Assembly (NCBI GenBank): GCA_963699965.1
Contig: CAVOVX010000006.1
Span: forward strand, 159,315-223,314
Length of the DNA stretch: 64,000 bases
From: an uncultured Chloroflexia bacterium
GTDB taxonomy: Bacteria; Chloroflexota; Limnocylindria; Limnocylindrales; CSP1-4
Reading direction: 5' to 3'
Below, one piece after another: positions 12,751 to 56,884 of the stretch (the first letter of the stretch is position 1; every line of letters begins with the position of its first letter). The notes beneath the pieces are model-generated. The model saw only the letters and a list, made by a program, of their open reading frames with translations. It searched no databases and was not told the origin of the DNA. The position numbers and the translations under genes were made by a program.

Positions 12751-15615
12751 GTGGGGACCGCTGCGGAGCCAGGGGACACCGGGGCGGCACAGGCTGGTGG
12801 TCCTGGCCCGGACCGACCGGCCGACTATCGCACGTTCCTCATCGCGGACATTCGCGGCTACACGAGCTACACCGACGAGCACGGTGACGAGGCCGCCGCG
12901 GCGCTCGCCAACCAGTTCGCAAAGATTGTCCGGGCGACGGTCGAGGCGCGCGACGGGACGCTCGTCGAGCTCCGCGGCGACGAGGCGCTGACCGTCTTCA
13001 CTTCCGCCCGTCAGGCCCTCCGCGCCGCGGTGGAGCTCCAGGCGCGGATCGCCGACGAGCACCTCCCGCGCGGGGTCGGGATCGGCCTCGATGCCGGCGA
13101 GGCCGTCCCCGTCGAGGGCGGCTACCGCGGCACGGCGCTCAACGTCGCTGCGCGGCTGTGCGCCCAGGCCGCCGCCGGCGAGGTCCTCGCGACCGAGACG
13201 GTCATCCACCTGGCCGCCCGGATCGAGGGAATCCACTACCGCGAGCCCCGGTCGATGCGACTGAAGGGGTTTGAGAGCCCATTCCGGGTCGTCGGCGTCC
13301 TGGCCGAAGCTGCCTCGCAGAGCGCTGCGCGGAGCCCGCGGGGACGGGCTGTGGCGGGCCCGCTCGATCGTCGTCCGGCGATCGCCGCGCTCGTTGCGGT
13401 CGCGGTCCTCGTCGTCGGCGGCGCGCTCGTCTTCACCCAGGGCCTCGGTGGCCGCGGGTCGGCCGCGCCGGGGTCGTCGGCGGGAGGTCCGCCGGGCGCC
13501 GGTGGATCCTCGTCGCTCCCGGCCGGGAGCGACGGGGCAAGCCTCGGCCCGATCGGGTCCGGCGCGGTCACCGGTCTCGGCGGCTCGCCGGGGACCTCGC
13601 CCGGATCGTCGCCGGCCATCCCCGCGACGGACGTTCCGATGTACAAGGGCGGCCTCGGCCGAACGAACCAGATGCCCGGACCGGCGATCGAGCGCAGCCC
13701 CGAGGTTCGCTGGCAGCTCCAGACCGGGTCGGACATGGGCGGCGGCCCCGCTGTCGCGGACAACTTCGTGTTCGATGGGAGCATCGACGGGACCCTCCAC
13801 GTCGTCGACCTGGCCACGGGCAAGGAGGTCTGGACCTTCGCCGCCGGGGCGCCGATCCTGACGGTCCCGACCGTCGTGGACGGATCCGTCTACGTGACCA
13901 CCGATGATGGGGTCTTCCACGCAGTCGACCTCGCGACACATGCCGAACGGTGGCGCGTTCCGGGGGTCGCGGTGGGATCGGTCCCGACGGTCGTCGGCGA
14001 CCTCGCCTACGTCGGGATCGGCTCCGGCCGATTCGCGGCCCTGGCGACGACCGACGGCCACGAGGCATGGCACGTCGACGTCGAGGGGACGGCGAACCGC
14101 AACGCGATCGCCGGCAACGTCGCCTACGTCGTCGGCGAGGACAGCGACCGGGTTTACGCCATCGATCTCAGCACGCACGCGATCCGCTGGAGCGCGGCCA
14201 CCGGTGCGGCTAGGCTCCTGACACCGGCAGTCGACGGCGACACGGTCTACGTCACGGTCGTCAATGTCGCGAACAAGGACAGCCGGGTCGTCGCCCTCGA
14301 CGCCGCGACCGGGGAGCAGCGCTGGCGGTTCGTCCCACCCGACCGCGCGAGCCTCGCGAGCCTGGCGGTTGGCGCCAATCGGGTGTACTCGACGTCCGAC
14401 GGCCCGAGCGGCACGACGAATGTCTGGGCCATCGATCGCGGGACCGGCGAGCTCGGCTGGACGGCCATCGTGCCGGGCTCGTTCGGGATCCATCCAGTGC
14501 CGGTCGGCGACGAGGTCGTCGTCGCGTCGAGCAACGGCGCGGTCGAGGCGCTGACGGCGGCGACGGGCAAGGAGGTGTGGCGATTCGTCGGCGCGGACCG
14601 GCCGGTGGGCAGCCCGATCGTCACGGGCGGGCTCCTGATCTCCGCCACCAGCGCGGGGACGTCGCCGGCGGGGATCGTGGCGCTCGGCGCCGGGCAGGAA
14701 TCCCCCGCCACGGTGCCGGCCTCCGCGATCGAGTGGATCGAGGACCTCACGGCGGGCGACGGCAAGCCGACCCTGTATCTGAACGTGATGCTCGACGCCA
14801 AGGGCAACATCTATGGCGCTGACCGGATGAGCGATCGGGTTGTCATCTGGGATCGCCAGGGGCGGCCGACGTCGTGGGGCACGCACGGCTCGAAGCCGGG
14901 CCAGTTCGACTTCAGCGAGGTCACGATCGGCGATCAGAGTCAGAGCGTCGCGATCGCAGGTGACGGGCGGATAGCGGTCGGCGACGGCGGTAACCACCGG
15001 GTCCAGGTCTTCGACGCAAAGCGGCACTTCCTGATGGCGATCGGGCACGAGGGCCAGGACAACGGCGAGTTCATCAACCCATGCTGTGTGGCATTCGACC
15101 CGGCCGGCCGGCTGTACGTGGCCGACCCCGGGCGGGGCGACATCCAGGTCTTCGACAAGAAGGGTCGCTTCGTCCGGACGATCGGCAGCCAGGGCAGCGG
15201 CAACGGCCAGTTCGACCGCCTCGGCGTGCCCTACATCGACCCGGCAACGGGCGACCTGTGGATCCCCGACTTCGCCAATCGCCGGATCCAGGTCATGACT
15301 CGCGAGGGCCAGTTCGTTGCCGCGTTCGGCGATGGCTCGAACGGCACGCAGGCGCTCGACCAGACGAACGGCGTCGTCCTGGACCGGGGCGGCCGGATGT
15401 GGATCGTCGACACCGACAACTTCGTCTACGTCCTCGACCCGGTTGGCCGGCTCATCGCCCGGCTCGGGCCCGAGGTCGTTGCCGGCCACGGCGACATCGC
15501 CCCGTCGTACCTGTGGCTGACCGATGACGGGAAGCTCTACCTTCCCGACACCGACAACGACCGGGTCGCGGTGTTCCAGCTCCACGAACCGCTCTGGCCG
15601 CCCCCGGGAGGCTGA
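12751..15615 (+). CDS. Class III cyclase domain - TM - PQQ-like beta-propeller - NHL-repeat receptor protein
   Basis: 954-aa ORF. Cyclase motifs are FLIADIRGYTSY, LRGDEALTVF and GTALNVAARL. The TM segment is AIAALVAVAVLVVGGALVF, followed by a Pro/Ser/Gly linker. BamB/PQQ-like repeats (GTLHVVDLATGKEVW, VYAIDLSTHAIRW, VVALDAATGEQRW) come next. NHL-like repeats follow (GQFDFSE, VAIAGDGRIAVGDGGNHRVQVFD, GRLYVADPGRGDIQVFD, RIQVM). Confidence 0.85.
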   Translation: MGTAAEPGDTGAAQAGGPGPDRPADYRTFLIADIRGYTSYTDEHGDEAAAALANQFAKIVRATVEARDGTLVELRGDEALTVFTSARQALRAAVELQARIADEHLPRGVGIGLDAGEAVPVEGGYRGTALNVAARLCAQAAAGEVLATETVIHLAARIEGIHYREPRSMRLKGFESPFRVVGVLAEAASQSAARSPRGRAVAGPLDRRPAIAALVAVAVLVVGGALVFTQGLGGRGSAAPGSSAGGPPGAGGSSSLPAGSDGASLGPIGSGAVTGLGGSPGTSPGSSPAIPATDVPMYKGGLGRTNQMPGPAIERSPEVRWQLQTGSDMGGGPAVADNFVFDGSIDGTLHVVDLATGKEVWTFAAGAPILTVPTVVDGSVYVTTDDGVFHAVDLATHAERWRVPGVAVGSVPTVVGDLAYVGIGSGRFAALATTDGHEAWHVDVEGTANRNAIAGNVAYVVGEDSDRVYAIDLSTHAIRWSAATGAARLLTPAVDGDTVYVTVVNVANKDSRVVALDAATGEQRWRFVPPDRASLASLAVGANRVYSTSDGPSGTTNVWAIDRGTGELGWTAIVPGSFGIHPVPVGDEVVVASSNGAVEALTAATGKEVWRFVGADRPVGSPIVTGGLLISATSAGTSPAGIVALGAGQESPATVPASAIEWIEDLTAGDGKPTLYLNVMLDAKGNIYGADRMSDRVVIWDRQGRPTSWGTHGSKPGQFDFSEVTIGDQSQSVAIAGDGRIAVGDGGNHRVQVFDAKRHFLMAIGHEGQDNGEFINPCCVAFDPAGRLYVADPGRGDIQVFDKKGRFVRTIGSQGSGNGQFDRLGVPYIDPATGDLWIPDFANRRIQVMTREGQFVAAFGDGSNGTQALDQTNGVVLDRGGRMWIVDTDNFVYVLDPVGRLIARLGPEVVAGHGDIAPSYLWLTDDGKLYLPDTDNDRVAVFQLHEPLWPPPGG

Positions 15616-15662
15616 GCGCACCCGACGGCGCCAGCGGGTAGTCCGCGAACCGCGCACTCTTC

Positions 15663-15740
15663 GGCCCAGGCTGCGGGGCCCAAGCGGCATCCCCCTCGGC
15701 CCAGGCAGCATATCCTCGGCCCAGGCTCCTTGGCCCAGGC
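15663..15740. repeat. Five dispersed copies of GGCCCAGGC (one is GGCCCAAGC)
   Basis: Copies at 15663, 15677, 15698, 15718 and 15732, mostly preceded by C(T/C)(T/C). They begin 48 nt after the stop of the cyclase-PQQ-NHL gene. Confidence 0.85.
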
Positions 15741-15917
15741 GGCGTCTCCTTCAGCTCGAGTTCTGACAGATGCACACCACGCGAGCGTTCGTCGACCCGA
15801 AGACGCTCCCTGGCCAAAGCTCGAGAGGAAGATCGTCCCGAGTCACGCTCGTCGCGGGATGGATTCCGTTCGGATCGACGCCGGAGGCCCGCAGCGTGTT
15901 GTCGAATGACCGCCTCG

Positions 15918-16038
15918 CGTGCATCTGACAAGGATCGCCGCCGGGGGCACGCATCTCGCACGAAACGCGGCCGGGGGGCGCATCTCGCACGAAGCGCCGC
16001 CGTGGGGCGTGCGTCTGCACATTGCGTCGTCGCCGGTG
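15918..16038. repeat. Degenerate tandem repeat of about 30 bp, 4 units (core GCATCT(C)GCAC ... CGCCGCCGGGGG)
   Basis: Units at 15918-15947, 15948-15978, 15979-16007 and 16008-16038. Unit 1 (GTGCATCTGACA, 15919-15930) is also an 11/12 inverted match to TGACAGATGCAC at 15764-15775. Confidence 0.8.
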
Positions 16039-16161
16039 ATCGCCGCCACCCGATAGGTCCAATACCGCACGCCCGTTCTATACTGACCTGGCCGCGCGGC
16101 TCCTCGGAGACGGGCAGACCCGTCGCAACAGCCTGGCGTCGGGCGACCGCGAGAACCCATC

Positions 16162-16251
16162 GTGTCCACACGTTGTCCACCCCCGTCCCGAGCCTGTCCA
16201 CGCTCCCTGGCGACCTGTCCACGCTCGGAGGCCCAGTCGTCCACATCCACA
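16162..16251 (+). promoter_or_regulatory. Array of six DnaA-box-like 9-mers, all in the same orientation, upstream of nrdJ
   Basis: GTGTCCACA 16162, TTGTCCACC 16173, CTGTCCACG 16194, CTGTCCACG 16215, TCGTCCACA 16237 and ACATCCACA 16243. Start-to-start spacing is 11, 21, 21, 22 and 6 bp. The high-GC actinobacterial DnaA-box consensus as I recall it is TTGTCCACA / YYRTCCACA. Confidence 0.55.
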
Positions 16252-16295
16252 GCATGTAGCGGTGCGTGACTTCACCAGACCACTACATGTTGTGT
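16247..16295 (+). promoter_or_regulatory. Two NrdR-box-like 16-bp palindromes
   Basis: CCACAGCATGTAGCGG (16247-16262) matches the recalled consensus acaCwAtATaTwGtgt at 10/16. CCACTACATGTTGTGT (16280-16295) matches at 13/16. Their starts are 33 bp apart, and the pair abuts the -35 element. Confidence 0.5.
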
Positions 16296-16302
16296 TTTCG
16301 GC

Positions 16303-16331
16303 TTGACGCGCATATTCGCCAGGCGTAGAGT
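16303..16331 (+). promoter_or_regulatory. Sigma70-type promoter TTGACG-N17-TAGAGT for nrdJ
   Basis: The -35 is at 16303-16308 and the -10 at 16326-16331, with an exact 17-nt spacer. It lies about 290 nt upstream of the nrdJ start. Confidence 0.5.
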
Positions 16332-16624
16332 TTGAAGGTCGCTCGGCCACCAGGAACGGCGGCCGGAACGACCGCTCGGATCGCCCGATCGGCGACCCGA
16401 AGGAACGCCGGATCCTCGTCCGGTCAGACAGTCAACGGAGGCAAGGTCGCAGCTACATCGCATCGACCGGCCTCGCCCGCCCGGATCCAACAAACCGGTC
16501 GCGGGCCCGCCGCCCAAGCCCATCGAGCTCGCCGCCGTGGACGGAGAGCCTGATCGCCACCGCCGCCGACCCGCGGCACCAGAGCCCCCGCCAACCGCCC
16601 AGCGATTCGGAGGAGTGAGGAACG

Positions 16625-19600
16625 ATGGCCCGAGCCGCCGTCCACGGAGACCAGGGAGTCCAGGTCATGGCTGAGTCCGGCGCCGCGAATGCGGCAACCA
16701 CCCCAGCAGCCAGGAAGCAGACCCGCGACAAGACCCGTCACCACGGGCCGTACGGGGTCAGCTTCAACGGCCAGAACCCGGACGGCACGCCGGCCCGCGG
16801 TCTCACCTTCGAGCGGCGCTGGACCCGGCCGGGCGTCCACCCCTACGACGAGATCCGCTGGGAGACCCGGACCGCGAGCATCGGCAACGAGTCGGGCAAG
16901 CTCGTCTTCGAGCAGAAGGACGTCGAGGTCCCCGAGTTCTGGAGCCAGCTCGCGACGAACGTCGTCGTCAGCAAGTACTTCCGCGGCCACCTCAACACGC
17001 CCGAGCGCGAGACGAGCGTCCGCCAGCTGATCGACCGGGTCGTCAACACGATCGCGGCCTGGGCCGAGACCCAGCACTACTTCGCGACCGACGAGGATCT
17101 CAGGGCGTTCCAGGCCGAGCTCACCCACCTGCTCGTCCACCAGAAGATGGCGTTCAACTCGCCGGTCTGGTTCAACGTCGGGATCGAGGCCAGGCCACAG
17201 TGCTCGGCCTGCTTCATCAACTCGGTCCAGGACTCGATGAGCTCGATCATGGACCTCGCCAAGACCGAGGCGATGCTGTTCAAGTTCGGCTCGGGCGCGG
17301 GCAGCAACCTGAGCCCGATCCGGTCGAGCCGCGAGAAGATGTCGGGCGGCGGGACCGCGAGCGGCCCGGTCAGCTTCATGAAGGGCTACGACGCCTTCGC
17401 CGGCGTGGTGAAGTCGGGCGGCAAGACCCGCCGCGCGGCCAAGATGGTCATCCTCGACGCGGACCACCCGGACATCCTCGACTTCATCGACTCGAAGAAG
17501 CTCGAGGAGCAGAAGGCCTGGGCCCTGATCGAGATGGGCTACGACCCGAGCTTCACCGGCGAGGCCTACGGCTCGGTGTTCTTCCAGAACGCGAACCACA
17601 GCGTCCGGGTCACCGACGCGTTCATGCAGGCCGTGGTCGACGGCAAGGACTGGACGACCCACGCGGTCGTCGACGGCACGCCGATGGGAACCTACAAGGC
17701 CGCCGACATCTTCCGCCGGATGGCCGACGCCGCCCACCTCTGCGGCGACCCGGGGATCCAGTACGACACGACGATCAACGACTGGCACACGAGCGCGAAC
17801 ACCGACCGGATCTACGCGAGCAACCCGTGCTCCGAGTACATGTTCCTCAACGACACGGCCTGCTTCGCCCCGGAGACCAGGATCAGCACGCCGGACGGCC
17901 TGCGGACCGTCGAGGAGCTCTACCTCGCCCAGCAGCGCGGCGAGAAGATCAACGTCACGACGGACATCCTGAGCGAGACGGACCAGCGCCGGATGGCCGC
18001 CCACCGGGCCGCGCTGATCACTCTCGTCGGCGACCGCAAGGTCTACCGGATGACGCTCCAGGACGGCCGCTCGATCCGGGCGACCGGGGACCACCGCTTC
18101 CTGACCGACAACGGCGACTGGAAGCGGGTCGACCAGCTGACCGCCCAGGTCGATCGGATCCAGGTCCGTGAGTCAGGCAACACGGTCAACTTCAATTCGC
18201 CCGAGGAGGACGTCCGGCGCTGGCAGGTCCTCGGCTGGATGAGCGCCGACGGCGTGTTCAGCGGTGACGTTGCGGCGCTGGCCTTCGGGCCGACCGAGCA
18301 GTCGACCGCCGAGACGCTGACCGAGGAGCTCAACCGGCTGCTCGCCGAGGCGCGCGACCGCGAGGACACCGTCGAGGACCTCGAGCGCGGGCTCCGCGGC
18401 GGCACGGCCACCACCGACGACGGCGCGCTGACCGCGGTCTCGACCGGCCGCCGGGCCAGCGTCTCGGCCCAGTCCGGTGGCACGCTCCGAGTGACCGCCG
18501 AGTCGAGCGCGCTCGTCCGGATGCTCCAGGATCGCTATGGCCTGCGAGCCACCGCGGCGGCTGCCCGCAAGGACGTCCCGACCGAGGTCCACCGGGTCGC
18601 CGACGATCTCAAGGTTGCCTACCTCCAGGGTCTCTTCTCGGCCGACGCCACGATCCGCCTCGCCGGCGGCGGGGCCGGGCCGGAGGTCACCCTCGTGTCG
18701 AACGCGCCGGAGATGGTCCGGAGCGTCCAGCTCCTCCTGTCGGATCTCGGGATCGCCAGCCGGATCGCGCAGCCGAGCCTCGAGCCGTACGGCGCGGCGG
18801 ATGCCGGCGCGGACCTCCAGCTCCATGTCTACGGCGAGGCCGCCCGGCGGTTCCTCGCGCTCGTCGGTGCCCCGCTGTCACCCGACAAGCAGGCCCGCGC
18901 GGACTCGATCCTCGCCCACCCCTACGCGCGCGGGATCGGCAACCCGCGGGCCACGACGGTCGCCTCGATCGTCCCGGATGGCGTCGAGACCGTCTACGAC
19001 GTGACCGAGCCGGTGACCCATTCTCTCGTCGCCGAGGGGCTGATCGCCCACAACTGCAACCTGGCCAGCCTCAACCTGATGAAGTTCGTCGGCGAGGACG
19101 GCGAGTTCGACGTCGAGTCGTATCGCTACGCCGCCCGGCTGACGATCACCGCCCAGGAGATCCTCGTCGACAACGCGTCGTACCCGACCCCGCGGATCGA
19201 GGAGAACAGCCACAAGTTCCGGCCGCTCGGGCTCGGCTACGCCAATCTCGGCGCGCTGCTCATGAGCCGCGGCCTGGCCTACGACTCGCAGGAGGGCCGG
19301 GACTATGCCGCCGCGCTGACCGCGATCATGCATGGCGAGGCCTACCGCCAGAGCTCGGTCATCGCCCGCGACCACGGCGGCCCGTTCAGCGAGTACAAGA
19401 AGAACGAGCAGCCGTTCCTGCGCGTCATCGCGAAGCATCGCGACGCCGCGTATGCCATTCCGAAGGATGGTGTCCCGGCCGACATGCTCGAGGCGTCTCG
19501 CCGCGTCTTCGACGAGGCGCTCGAGCTGGGCCGGGAGCACGGCTACCGGAACGCCCAGGTCACGGTCCTGGCGCCGACCGGCACGATCGCCTTCATGATG

Positions 19601-20959
19601 GATTGCGACACGACCGGAATCGAGCCGGACATCGCGCTCATCAAGTACAAGAAGCTCGTCGGCGAGGGCTTCCTCAAGATCGTCAACCAGACCGTCCCGG
19701 CCGCGCTCAAGATGCTCGGCTACGGCGCCGAGCAGGTCGACGAGATCATCAGCTACGTCAACGAGCGCGAGACGATCGAGGGCGCACCGCACCTCAAGCC
19801 GCAGCACCTGGCGGTGTTCGACTGCGCGTTCAAGCCGGTCAACGGCGAGCGCTCGATCCACTACATGGGCCACGTCCGGATGATGGCGGCCGTCCAGCCG
19901 TTCATCTCGGGCGCGATCAGCAAGACCGTCAACATGCCCGAGGCGGCGACGCCCGAGGAGATCGAGAAGGTCTACCTCGAGGGCTGGAAGCTCGGCCTCA
20001 AGGCGATCGCGATCTATCGCGACGGCTCCAAGCGGAGCCAGCCGCTGAGCACCGGTAAGAAGAACTCTGACGAGGGGGCCGACGCCGGGGTGGTCGCCGA
20101 GCTACGGGCACAGCTCGCGACCGCCCAGGCGGAGGCGAAGAAGCCGCACCGCCGCCGCCTCCCGGCCGAGCGGACCGCGGTCACCCACAAGTTCGACGTC
20201 GCCGGCCACGAGGGCTACATCACCGTCGGGCTCTACCCGGACGGCCAGCCCGGCGAGATCTTCCTCAAGATGGCCAAGGAGGGCTCGACCGTGTCGGGCC
20301 TGATGGACACCGTCGCGACGTCGGTCAGCCTCGCCCTCCAGTACGGCGTGCCGCTGCGCGACCTCGTGAACAAGTTCGCCCATGTCCGGTTCGAGCCATC
20401 GGGCTTCACCGGCAACCAGGAGATCCCGATCGCGAAGTCGATCGTGGACTACGTCTTCCGCTGGCTCGGCAGTCGGTTCCTGCCGGCTGACGAACGGGCG
20501 CAGATCGGCCTGGTCGACCGCGGGGCGGTCGTGGATGCGCCGGCGCCAATCTCCTTCGGCGGCGGTTTCGGCGAGGGATCCTCCCCCTCGCCGACCGCCC
20601 CGAATCTCGAGGAAGGTCCGTCCGCAGTGGACGAGGCCATCGATCCGCCGACCGATCGGCCGACCGCGACCGCCGTCGCCGCCGACCCGGCACCTGCCGT
20701 GTCGACCCCGGCGCCGAAGGCCGAGCTCCCGGTCGTGACGAACGGCCACGCCGAGGGCAGCGCCAACGGCAACGGCAAGGCCAACGGGAACGGCAACGGC
20801 AACGCCCTGAGCGCGATCGCCGCCTCGCTCGGCACGACCAAGGTCGCCTTCACGGTCCAGGAGGACGCCCCGAGCTGCGCCGAATGCGGCTCGATCATGG
20901 TCCGCAACGGCAGCTGCTACAAGTGCCTCAACTGCGGCAGCACGAGCGGCTGCAGCTGA
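16625..20959 (+). CDS. nrdJ: Adenosylcobalamin-dependent (class II) ribonucleotide reductase NrdJ, intein-containing precursor
   Basis: 1444-aa ORF. Motifs are LATNVVVSKYFRG, the thiyl-radical loop SNPCSEYMF, and the C-terminal Cys cluster CAECGSIMVRNGSCYKCLNCG. A GGAGGAGTGAGGAACG Shine-Dalgarno region lies upstream. An alternative start is MAESG at 16667. Confidence 0.95.
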   Translation: MARAAVHGDQGVQVMAESGAANAATTPAARKQTRDKTRHHGPYGVSFNGQNPDGTPARGLTFERRWTRPGVHPYDEIRWETRTASIGNESGKLVFEQKDVEVPEFWSQLATNVVVSKYFRGHLNTPERETSVRQLIDRVVNTIAAWAETQHYFATDEDLRAFQAELTHLLVHQKMAFNSPVWFNVGIEARPQCSACFINSVQDSMSSIMDLAKTEAMLFKFGSGAGSNLSPIRSSREKMSGGGTASGPVSFMKGYDAFAGVVKSGGKTRRAAKMVILDADHPDILDFIDSKKLEEQKAWALIEMGYDPSFTGEAYGSVFFQNANHSVRVTDAFMQAVVDGKDWTTHAVVDGTPMGTYKAADIFRRMADAAHLCGDPGIQYDTTINDWHTSANTDRIYASNPCSEYMFLNDTACFAPETRISTPDGLRTVEELYLAQQRGEKINVTTDILSETDQRRMAAHRAALITLVGDRKVYRMTLQDGRSIRATGDHRFLTDNGDWKRVDQLTAQVDRIQVRESGNTVNFNSPEEDVRRWQVLGWMSADGVFSGDVAALAFGPTEQSTAETLTEELNRLLAEARDREDTVEDLERGLRGGTATTDDGALTAVSTGRRASVSAQSGGTLRVTAESSALVRMLQDRYGLRATAAAARKDVPTEVHRVADDLKVAYLQGLFSADATIRLAGGGAGPEVTLVSNAPEMVRSVQLLLSDLGIASRIAQPSLEPYGAADAGADLQLHVYGEAARRFLALVGAPLSPDKQARADSILAHPYARGIGNPRATTVASIVPDGVETVYDVTEPVTHSLVAEGLIAHNCNLASLNLMKFVGEDGEFDVESYRYAARLTITAQEILVDNASYPTPRIEENSHKFRPLGLGYANLGALLMSRGLAYDSQEGRDYAAALTAIMHGEAYRQSSVIARDHGGPFSEYKKNEQPFLRVIAKHRDAAYAIPKDGVPADMLEASRRVFDEALELGREHGYRNAQVTVLAPTGTIAFMMDCDTTGIEPDIALIKYKKLVGEGFLKIVNQTVPAALKMLGYGAEQVDEIISYVNERETIEGAPHLKPQHLAVFDCAFKPVNGERSIHYMGHVRMMAAVQPFISGAISKTVNMPEAATPEEIEKVYLEGWKLGLKAIAIYRDGSKRSQPLSTGKKNSDEGADAGVVAELRAQLATAQAEAKKPHRRRLPAERTAVTHKFDVAGHEGYITVGLYPDGQPGEIFLKMAKEGSTVSGLMDTVATSVSLALQYGVPLRDLVNKFAHVRFEPSGFTGNQEIPIAKSIVDYVFRWLGSRFLPADERAQIGLVDRGAVVDAPAPISFGGGFGEGSSPSPTAPNLEEGPSAVDEAIDPPTDRPTATAVAADPAPAVSTPAPKAELPVVTNGHAEGSANGNGKANGNGNGNALSAIAASLGTTKVAFTVQEDAPSCAECGSIMVRNGSCYKCLNCGSTSGCS
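17861..19054 (+). mobile_element. Intein (398 aa) with LAGLIDADG homing-endonuclease domain inside nrdJ
   Basis: The extein junctions read ...FLNDTA | CFAPETRISTPDG ... SLVAEGLIAHN | CNLASLNL. Block B is ATGDHRF. The LAGLIDADG-like motifs are LGWMSADGVF and LQGLFSADATI. The terminal HN is followed by a +1 Cys. Confidence 0.9.
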
Positions 20960-55358: not shown

Positions 55359-55485
55359 GGCGTTCTCCCTGGGTCGACTGGTCTGGCGATTTGGTTCGCT
55401 GAGACGAGGTTGCGGCCGTCCACAGGCGTCCACAACGGACCACGGGGCTGAAACCTTTCAGACCTTGGTCTGACTCGTACGAGGT

Positions 55486-56884
55486 GTGACCACCGACACC
55501 GCGACGCTCGGCACGCTGATCGACGTCCAGCCAACGACCCGCGTCGGACACATGTCCCTTGCCCGGCGCTTCCTGCTGGCCAACCTGCTCGTGGTCGTCG
55601 TCGCCAGCCTCGCGGTCGGAGCGTGGGTCGGCTCCGAGCTGGAGAAGGGCGTGCTCGACCGGACCGCGTCGATCACGGCCCTCTACATCGAGAGCTTCGT
55701 CGAGCCGCAGGTCGAGATCATGTCGACGAACGGAGCGCTGACGGCCGCCAATGTCGACGCGCTCGACCACCTCCTGTCGGACACCCAGCTCGGCGAGCGG
55801 ATCGTGTCGTTCCGCGTCTGGACGCCCGGTGGCGTGATCGCCTACTCGCCGAACCGCGAGCTGATCGGGCGACAGTTCGAGCCCGGAGGGCGGCCTCGCA
55901 CACGCCCTGGCCGGGGCCGTCGCGACCGACATCAGTGACCTGAGCGGGCCCGAGAACACCTACGAGCGCCAGCGTTGGCCGAGGTTGGTCGAGACGTACG
56001 TGCCGGTTCGCGAACGCGGCGGTCCGCGGATCATCGGCGTCACCGAGTTCTACCAGCTCCCGGACGAGATCGACGCCGAGGTCGCGTCGGCACGCCTGGG
56101 ATCCTGGACGGTCCTCGCCCTCGCTGCCCTGGTCTCCTACCTCCTCCTGGCCGGGATCGTGAAGGGCGGCAGTGACATGATCGAGCGGCAGCAACAGGCT
56201 CTCCGCCGACGCGTCGCCGAGCTGTCCAGCCTCCTCGAGCAGAATGCCGGCCTCCACGACCGTCTCCGCCGCTCGGCTGAGCGAACCACCGCGCTCAACG
56301 AAAGCGGCTTGCGCCGGATCGGCAGCGACCTCCACGACGGACCAGCCCAGACGATGGCGCTCGCCCTGCTCCGACTCGACGAGCTCGATGCTGCGGGCGG
56401 CGTGTCAGAGGCCATCGGGAGTGCCCTCGACGACCTTCGCTCGATCGCCGCCGGGCTCCGCTCGCCGGCGTTCGACGACCTGTCGCTCGCTGACGTTGCC
56501 GAGCGAGCGATCCGCGAGCATGAGCGACGAACGGGCAAGTCCATCTCGTCGACCGTCGCGAGCCCGCTGCCCGTGGTCCCGGTCGTCACGAAGATCGCGA
56601 CCTATCGTGTGCTCCAGGAAGCGCTCTCGAACGCGACCCGGCACGCCGCCGGAGCGGAGGTCGAAGTCGTGATCGCGGCAACGCCGCGCGACGTCCGGCT
56701 CGAAGTCCGCGATCGTGGGCCGGGCTTCGACTCGGGCACGATCCGGTCTCACGCGCTCGGTGTCGCCGGAATGCGCGAGCGCGCCGAGCTCCTCGGCGGT
56801 TCCTTCGAAATCGCGCGTCGAACTGATGGCCCGGGCACGGTCGTCCGACTCGCCCTGCCCGTGAATGTTGGAGTCCAGGAATGA
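55486..56884 (+). pseudogene. Sensor histidine kinase (HisKA_3/NarX-DesK type) with periplasmic sensor domain, frameshifted near 55888
   Basis: The sequence runs through TM1 and a sensor domain, then shifts at IGRQFEP and reads EGGLAHALAGAVATDISDLSGPENTYE. TM2 follows, then the H-box RRIGSDLHDGPAQ and the ATPase motifs LSNATRHA, DRGPGF and GVAGMRERAELLGG. Confidence 0.85.

Follow-up and report, generated by a model that had tools for sequence, protein, structure and literature searches.

The 64-kb window analyzed here (the whole stretch of DNA under study, from an uncultured member of the Chloroflexota) carries a phased array of DnaA-box-like 9-mers upstream of nrdJ, the gene for a class II (B12-dependent) ribonucleotide reductase (RNR). 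The array consists of five co-oriented boxes located between a LexA-type palindrome and two NrdR boxes, and a comparison with related loci indicated that it is almost certainly a genuine control element. We consider it fairly probable, on sequence grounds, that this lattice is bound by DnaA and modulates the NrdR-controlled nrdJ promoter, which would link DNA-precursor supply to replication. The features of the module and the gene behind it are as follows.

16061–16084 (core 16067–16078), no strand: LexA-type palindrome AATACC GCACGCCCGTTC TATACT, the upstream border of the module
16162–16170, + strand: box 1, GTGTCCACA, which opens the distal double box
16173–16181, + strand: box 2, TTGTCCACC, which follows box 1 after a 2-bp gap and completes the double box
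16194–16202, + strand: box 3, CTGTCCACG, starting 21 bp after the start of box 2
16215–16223, + strand: box 4, CTGTCCACG, starting 21 bp after the start of box 3
16237–16245, + strand: box 5, TCGTCCACA, 22 bp after box 4 and abutting NrdR box 1
16243–16251, + strand: sixth 9-mer of the first-pass annotation, ACATCCACA, 6 bp after the start of box 5, with a 3-nt overlap
16247–16262, no strand: NrdR box 1, CCACAGCATGTAGCGG, which includes part of the sixth 9-mer and is kept in all Limnocylindria-type loci
16280–16295, no strand: NrdR box 2, CCACTACATGTTGTGT, which ends 7 bp before the –35 hexamer
16303–16331, + strand: predicted nrdJ promoter (promoter scan), –35 TTGACG, 17-nt spacer, –10 TAGAGT
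16625–20959, + strand: nrdJ, class II RNR of 1444 amino acids (Pfam)

Read from 5′ to 3′, the module thus consists of the LexA-type palindrome, a double box, three single boxes spaced two helical turns apart on one face of the DNA, two NrdR boxes, and the –35/–10 elements. The six 9-mers reported by the first-pass annotation were found where it had placed them, every one on the + strand, with the claimed spacing (start-to-start distances of 11, 21, 21, 22, and 6 bp), and the last of them overlaps NrdR box 1 (16243–16251 against 16247–16262), as had also been proposed. The sixth 9-mer nevertheless did not hold up as a member of the array. It overlaps box 5, and the CCACA within it forms the left half of NrdR box 1; the array proper therefore comprises five boxes. 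The window boxes follow the pattern YYGTCCACR and score 7–8 of 9 against the DnaA pattern TT(A/G)TNCACA. The segment CCTGTCCACGCTC, at boxes 3 and 4, was recovered by a repeat search as direct repeat D10, present twice, 21 bp apart. Between the end of the last box and the –35 hexamer at 16303 lie 57 bp, and the array spans approximately –95 to –175 relative to the predicted transcription start.

The clustering of these boxes is not a consequence of a high frequency of the core in the window as a whole. The heptamer TGTCCAC was observed six times in the 64 kb, against 5.75 expected from shuffled sequences, and four of the six occurrences lie inside these 60 bp. Of 38 GTCCAC hexamers on both strands of the window, five fall here, on one strand and within 80 nt; by a Poisson estimate, five or more GTCCAC within 80 nt of a single strand have a probability of 6e-11 per position, which corresponds to approximately 8e-6 for all of the window. 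When the box pattern was relaxed, the array was the sole site in the 64 kb with at least three co-oriented boxes within 100 bp, so that no other region of the window contains GTCCAC 9-mers at a comparable density. This result and the conservation in relatives described below both favor the first-pass annotation, which had named a similar density elsewhere and a lack of conservation as refuting outcomes. The core also forms another small direct repeat, CCGTCCACAggCGTCCACAaCGGACCACg, with a 10-bp period, at 55415–55443, between a minus-strand low-complexity gene (start approximately 55358) and an open reading frame (ORF) of 150 amino acids (55486–55938) that has no Pfam match. It could be a further site for the same factor as the array.

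To compare the module between organisms, nrdJ loci were gathered from one genome per species (L001–L033, related Chloroflexota; L034–L080, other phyla). The closest nrdJ loci were all from Chloroflexota, with up to 91% amino-acid identity, and include bins named Candidatus Limnocylindrales, Limnocylindrus, and Aquidulcis. The wording of the first-pass annotation had implied a high-GC actinobacterium; with its nearest nrdJ loci in the Chloroflexota and Limnocylindria, the host of the window is, as judged from sequence, a high-GC soil member of the class Limnocylindria. Boxes, found by their TCCAC core, were strongly conserved upstream of nrdJ in these relatives, and the window together with 25 relatives forms a set of 26 loci with an array. 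In each of the 26, the stretch from the LexA-type palindrome to NrdR box 1 holds three to nine boxes, every one in the same orientation and none on the opposite strand. The largest array was observed in L012, with nine boxes (2227–2330), five of them at 11–12 bp spacing. In L011, a separate run of three CGATCCACC boxes at 22-bp spacing (2136–2188) lies inside a longer tandem repeat, approximately 350 bp upstream of the main array of that locus.

The spacing of the boxes is strictly periodic. Among 108 distances between neighboring boxes, 22 were 11/12 bp, 68 were 21/22 bp, six were 32/33 bp, and five were 42–44 bp; 101 of the 108 are thus multiples of approximately 10.7 bp, and three of the seven off-lattice distances represent the 6-bp step to the NrdR half-site. 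When the sequences were compared without gaps, with NrdR box 2 as the anchor, the window, L002, L003, and L032 all showed cores at –115, –104, –83, –62, and –40, and the spacers have diverged while the boxes hold their columns. The core of box 1, at –115, occupies the identical position in L004 as well, and (A/T)TCGTCCACA at –40 is kept in the window, L001, L003, L006, and L032. Across all loci, box centers were phase-locked to NrdR box 2, with R = 0.63–0.73 at a period of 10.6–10.8 bp versus approximately 0.3 at 10.0 bp. Taken together, these data are a clear sign, at the level of sequence, of the phylogenetic footprint of a protein-binding lattice.

The array does not point in the same direction in every locus. 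Its boxes are directed toward nrdJ in 12 loci (the “+” class) and away from it in 14 (the “–” class); the registers of the two classes relative to NrdR box 2 differ, and each is fixed. Arrays of both classes are interleaved on the NrdJ tree, indicating that the orientation has changed more than once. The box nearest NrdR box 1 touches it in the “+” class and lies 7–18 bp away in the “–” class, and the left half of NrdR box 1, CCACA, is present in all related loci whichever way the array points. By this comparison, selection acts on co-orientation and helical phase and not on the direction relative to the promoter. In the streamlined freshwater clade (L025 and L027–L029), there are the NrdR boxes and promoter only, with neither an array nor a LexA-type site, and no array was found upstream of nrdJ in Acidobacteriota, Gemmatimonadota, or the other phyla sampled (L034–L080), where only scattered single boxes were observed.

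The elements on either side of the array are conserved as well. The two NrdR boxes have the make-up of an NrdR operator, namely, two 16-bp palindromic boxes an integer number of helical turns apart upstream of an RNR gene. They are mutually inverted (inverted repeat I4, 16 nt, 88% complementary, with 15 nt between the arms), 33 bp apart, and occupy –43 to –91 relative to the predicted start. The promoter was the only sigma-70-like site in 15600–16700, where shuffled sequences gave an expectation of 0.0, and 31 of the 33 loci from related Chloroflexota carry TTGACn-17/18-TAnnnT at the equivalent place. Base by base, 31 related loci are nearly identical in NrdR box 2, the T-rich linker, and the –35 and –10 elements. 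The Pfam assignment and the conserved NrdR boxes are both in agreement with the earlier description of the gene as a class II RNR behind an NrdR-controlled promoter.

At the distal border, a GnAC-N4-GTTC palindrome with ATA/TAT flanks was found in 28 loci (L001–L024, L026, L030, L032, and L033), 166–222 bp upstream of NrdR box 2, or 126–131 bp in the short modules of L026 and L030. The Bacillus subtilis LexA operator is GAACN4GTTC (PMC4234289). The window palindrome carries one mismatch (GCAC) to GAAC-N4-GTTC, and the LexA-type motif is not enriched across the window. From this likeness, the palindrome is a putative LexA site, and it suggests an SOS input to nrdJ. In L010, L015, and L021, the palindrome directly adjoins the first box. 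A TAnnnT motif occurs downstream of the palindrome in roughly two-thirds of loci; no conserved –35 element accompanies it, and the promoter scan made no call there, which leaves a second, damage-inducible promoter as no more than a possibility.

Several lines of evidence point to DnaA as the protein that would bind the array. As references, we used the E. coli DnaA-box consensus TTATNCACA, its high-GC form TTGTCCACA, and TT(A/G)TNCACA as the scoring pattern. A logo of 137 boxes showed T or C at positions 1–2, G (61%) or A (23%) at position 3, and G, A, or C, and almost never T, at position 9; it equals the high-GC DnaA box YYRTCCACA except for the relaxed position 9. Among 133 boxes in the 26 arrays, four matched the scoring pattern at 9/9, 38 at 8/9, 53 at 7/9, 36 at 6/9, and two at 5/9. 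The only common core variant on the lattice was TGCAC, in the context TTGTGCACN, and eight of its ten same-strand occurrences lie exactly on the lattice. The position that varies, position 5, is the N position of TTATNCACA. T4 was replaced by C on the lattice in nine cases, so T4 is not absolute. Boxes of the TGCAC/CGCAC type are those of E. coli nrdA, polA, and purH (PMC11317965).

The arrangement of the boxes is also consistent with DnaA. A double box with a 2-bp gap is located at the distal end of nearly all “+” arrays and of several “–” arrays, and the 22 spacings of 11/12 bp lie mostly at distal array ends. In E. coli, stable binding of DnaA requires a double box with a 2–3-bp gap, as established by chromatin immunoprecipitation sequencing (ChIP-seq) and mutagenesis for nrdA, nrdD, purH, and oriC (PMC11317965). 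In the “–” arrays, distal boxes match the consensus at 7.6/9 and proximal ones, beside the NrdR boxes, at 6.1/9, a gradient that resembles a strong anchor followed by weak sites. Control of RNR genes by DnaA is documented for nrdAB and nrdDG of E. coli (PMC11317965), and nrdB is among the direct DnaA targets in Caulobacter (PMC3193534). The DnaA assignment made in the first-pass annotation is thus borne out in part: it agrees with the logo, with the variation seen at position 5, and with the double box at the distal end, and the sixth box and the suggestion of an origin fell away.

A metagenome scan with the pattern TGTCCAC-N13-15-TGTCCAC-N13-15-TGTCCAC matched at least 120 loci. The matches listed consisted almost entirely of TGTCCAC microsatellites and tandem repeats of whole units; no nrdJ locus of Limnocylindria was among them, and a single one, L133 (ERZ795056.199), was informative. 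In the dnaA-dnaN intergenic origin of this contig (2780–3090), three TTGTCCACA boxes, 22 and 21 bp apart, lie just after dnaA; additional boxes, TTATCCACTTATCCAC among them, are present as well, as are TAC repeats and, ahead of dnaN, an AT-rich stretch. The two-turn spacing is therefore compatible with DnaA. Another metagenome locus, L136 (GC content 0.71), carries five intergenic (C/T)(T/C)GTCCACC boxes at 21–24-bp spacing (2880–2990), preceded by CACAAATCGGG repeats, on a 6.5-kb contig without nrdJ or dnaA. This array is possibly another target or an origin-like element.

Several points weigh against DnaA as the binding protein, or against the strength of the comparison. Position 9 is A in only 34% of the boxes, C is as frequent as T at positions 1–2, and most boxes are 6–8/9 matches and would hence be weak sites individually. 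No weak box was found midway between neighbors at 21/22 bp when the mid positions of the lattice were checked; together with the 2–3-bp gaps known from E. coli, this makes contiguous AAA+ contacts and filaments of the E. coli type unlikely. An array approximately 95–175 bp upstream of the predicted start is far for a classical activator. The DnaA box is near-universally conserved, and it is on that conservation that the presumed use of this box by the Limnocylindria DnaA rests. The sequences compared are related, so that the locus counts are not independent events. Finally, the TCCAC core was imposed by the search, which makes its invariance partly circular; only the lattice-position analysis of the TGCAC variant escapes this circularity.

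Some of these properties would suit another, possibly lineage-specific factor, of the OmpR/PhoB type or otherwise, that reads GTCCAC direct repeats, so that the likeness to the DnaA box would be a coincidence. We regard this as rather unlikely, yet deserving of attention. Only approximately 8 nt are specified, with no bias to A at position 9, and the 21/22-bp spacing without intermediate sites differs from the DnaA arrays of E. coli. Direct repeats at an 11-bp period are typical of operators of the OmpR/PhoB family, and the Pho boxes CTGTCAT of E. coli and GTTCACC of Streptomyces resemble CTGTCCAC at several positions. Dimers of such response regulators, however, need adjacent 11-nt units, whereas 68 of the 108 spacings are 21/22 bp and only the distal pair fits. 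Confinement of the array to one clade, and its loss together with the LexA-type site in the streamlined relatives, are as expected of a dispensable accessory regulator, but no regulator gene is conserved beside nrdJ, where the upstream genes vary among 34 loci. Moreover, the core variant that is tolerated falls exactly on the N position of the DnaA box, and no protein other than DnaA is known to have this 9-mer for its consensus; a link of DnaA to RNR genes is documented. An extension of NrdR itself, with the boxes as extra NrdR half-sites for a higher oligomer reaching upstream, appears very improbable. CCAC/GTGG is common to the boxes and the NrdR boxes, of which CCAC makes up the outer quarter, box 5 abuts NrdR box 1, and the array shares the helical phase of the NrdR boxes; on the other hand, NrdR boxes are palindromes read by a dimer, whereas the sites of the array are co-oriented and non-palindromic, the CCAC of the NrdR boxes is not preceded by a conserved T4, G3, and YY as in the array boxes, and streamlined relatives and the other sampled phyla keep NrdR-type boxes without an array.

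The array might also bind DnaA without regulating nrdJ. A role mainly in titration or recharging, as at datA or the DARS sites, is improbable in our judgment. Five boxes in approximately 85 bp make a cluster near datA in size, and uvrB is a gene under LexA control. In E. coli, DARS1 is located in the control region of uvrB (PMC11317965), and thus at a LexA-regulated gene, just as a LexA-type site adjoins the array here. In every locus, however, the array is in register, to the base pair, with the promoter and the NrdR boxes, which would be needless for a reservoir, and a single cluster of five mostly weak boxes would titrate little. No IHF-like site was seen, although no search aimed at one was made. 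Furthermore, all boxes of the array are co-oriented, unlike those of the DARS core, which includes an inverted box. Least probable of all, and hardly to be expected, is that the array belongs to an origin of replication, either chromosomal (oriC boxes) or of a plasmid (iterons); the first-pass annotation had offered part of an origin as an alternative. Co-oriented, helically phased repeats at 21–22 bp are typical of iterons, and clusters of DnaA boxes define oriC; against this, the element accompanies nrdJ in every case, irrespective of which genes flank it. An oriC is expected to have an AT-rich unwinding element approximately two turns from an R1-type box (10.1101/2025.08.05.668638). An oriC was rejected because no AT-rich DNA unwinding element (DUE) was found: the lowest GC content of any 40 bp in the intergenic interval 15616–16624 was 0.45, at NrdR box 2 and the –35 hexamer. 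In addition, a scan of the window in six frames gave no sequence motif of DnaA, NrdR, or the ATP cone, and the 36 window ORFs scanned with Pfam were metabolic or unrelated, with no dnaA, dnaN, rep, or par among them. The GC skew over the 64-kb window was uninformative. Iterons were likewise rejected, as only approximately 8–9 nt of each 21-nt unit are conserved, the spacers diverge, and there is no rep gene.

If DnaA is the binding protein, the module might operate as follows. DnaA, probably DnaA-ATP, would nucleate on the distal double box or the best box and then occupy the weaker single boxes on one face of the helix, in the direction of the promoter as far as box 5, where the last protomer would adjoin NrdR box 1. 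Filling of the array would alter either NrdR occupancy or the geometry of the DNA upstream of the promoter, and synthesis of deoxyribonucleoside triphosphates (dNTPs) would thereby track the initiation potential of the cell. NrdR would sense the dATP/ATP pool, and the LexA-type site would probably supply a DNA-damage input. With the array at –95 to –175 and the NrdR boxes at –43 to –91, the NrdR complex or the upstream DNA path is the most economical target, rather than RNA polymerase. The effect of DnaA could be either activation by displacement of NrdR or co-repression; E. coli DnaA reportedly both relieves and reinforces repression, depending on the level of DnaA-ATP (Olliver et al. in 2010). 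Tentatively, and with more doubt than confidence, we suggest that the module represents an undescribed mode of initiator-dependent control, in which single boxes for DnaA or another factor, two turns apart on one face of the helix and invertible as a block, act on the NrdR complex and form a three-input switch with the LexA-type operator. The inputs in such a mode would be the initiation potential, the dNTP pool, and DNA damage; the target would be a class II RNR, and the span would be a globally abundant uncultured class of soil bacteria.

Parts of this arrangement have counterparts in known systems. The double boxes of E. coli nrdAB and nrdDG are likewise DnaA-type 9-mers upstream of an NrdR-controlled RNR promoter, and the co-oriented pair, 2–3 bp apart, reads TTATCCACAaagTTATGCACT in E. 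coli and GTGTCCACAcgTTGTCCACC in the window. Unlike at nrdAB, the pair in the window is extended by three single boxes (up to seven in other loci) at two-turn spacing; the array is also located further upstream, precedes a class II RNR gene in a Chloroflexota host, and is a predicted DnaA target. The low-affinity arrays of E. coli oriC (R1/R4 anchors with the tau, I, and C sites) are similarly co-oriented and in helical phase, with a better site at one end and weaker ones after it, a gradient that was seen here in the “–” class. Those arrays have 2-bp gaps, an 11-bp period, and an unwinding function, whereas the spacing here is mostly 21/22 bp, there is no DUE, and the context is a promoter. 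In Caulobacter crescentus, whose DnaA regulon is known, the initiator also controls transcription for nucleotide synthesis, as is proposed here (PMC3193534). Single or few boxes are described there, in contrast to the phased multi-box lattice of the window. We know of no such lattice in the Caulobacter regulon.

Several DnaA boxes outside an origin also occur at datA and the DARS sites and in the clusters of Bacillus and Streptomyces. These act on the availability of DnaA and are not promoter-locked, whereas the nrdJ array is in base-pair register with the NrdR boxes and the –35 hexamer. Plasmid iterons (direct repeats of 17–22 bp at 21–22-bp spacing) share the co-orientation and the two-turn distance, but in iterons the whole unit is conserved and a rep gene is adjacent, whereas approximately 9 nt per unit are conserved here and there is no rep gene.

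Control of RNR by DnaA as such is already established. What would be new is the lattice of single boxes spaced two turns apart, the fact that it is inverted as a block between clades, and its place between LexA-type and NrdR operators, as well as the class II RNR as the target and an uncultured Chloroflexota class as the host. Literature searches returned no description of DnaA, nrd, or SOS regulation in Limnocylindria. Control of RNR by DnaA has so far been documented in a few Proteobacteria, with one box pair; the array described here is much larger and strictly phased. If DnaA binds it, dNTP supply would prove to be coupled to initiation widely and since ancient times, and the array would offer a natural test case for cooperation of DnaA across two turns and for the question of why orientation matters within the array and not relative to the promoter. 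The array would also supply a practical DnaA-box model for the prediction of origins and regulons in unculturable organisms.

The gene and its surroundings were characterized further, with two additional features.

12751–15615, + strand: PQQ/NHL beta-propeller protein gene, the upstream neighbor of nrdJ
16332–16624, + strand: nrdJ leader, approximately 285 nt, with the conserved blocks GGTCGCTCGG (approximately 16338) and GGAGG-N5-TCGCAGCTAC (16437–16456)

The NrdJ protein gave Pfam matches to Ribonuc_red_lgC (2.8e-133), Ribonuc_red_2_N, TSCPD, LAGLIDADG_3, and Intein_splicing; a search for entries identical to its sequence returned none. A LAGLIDADG intein interrupts it at approximately residues 462–810 (window 18008–19054). 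In a tblastn search with the N-terminal 460 residues, the match stops at residue 413 in most related loci, indicating that the sequence beyond differs between relatives. The intergenic region between the PQQ/NHL gene and nrdJ is approximately 1 kb long. Upstream of nrdJ in seven of 34 loci (L009, L010, L013, L019, L021, L026, and L033), a gene of approximately 250 codons recurs, 0.7–1.7 kb away and mostly divergent, whose product combines an N-terminal XRE-type helix-turn-helix with a PD-(D/E)xK-like, nuclease-like motif (D...ELK).

In the leader, the first conserved block, GGTCGCTCG (approximately 16338–16346), sits at the predicted transcription start. The second block, GGAGG-N5-8-TCGCAGCTAC, was found in 18 loci at a fixed place, +106 to +111, and at +129 to +134 in L013 and L014. 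A search of the region against Rfam gave nothing at the gathering thresholds and only chance-level matches at E ≤ 10, and RNAalifold applied to 16 leaders gave zero consensus pairs. The conserved blocks may represent an undescribed leader element or a processing site.

Tandem copies were also observed upstream of the LexA-type palindrome, at 15764–16021, with a period of approximately 29–30 bp (CGCCGCCGGGGGGCGCATCTCGCACGAAA, 2.5 copies according to Tandem Repeats Finder, TRF) and an inverted copy at 15764–15799. These copies bear GTGCATCTGACA, CGCATCTCGCAC, and GTGCGTCTGCAC motifs, and at the equivalent place L002 has GTGCACCTGTCA three times. Near the start of the window, at 36–85, a short tandem repeat, CCGTCCGTT, is present in approximately five copies and ends in CCGTCCAC.

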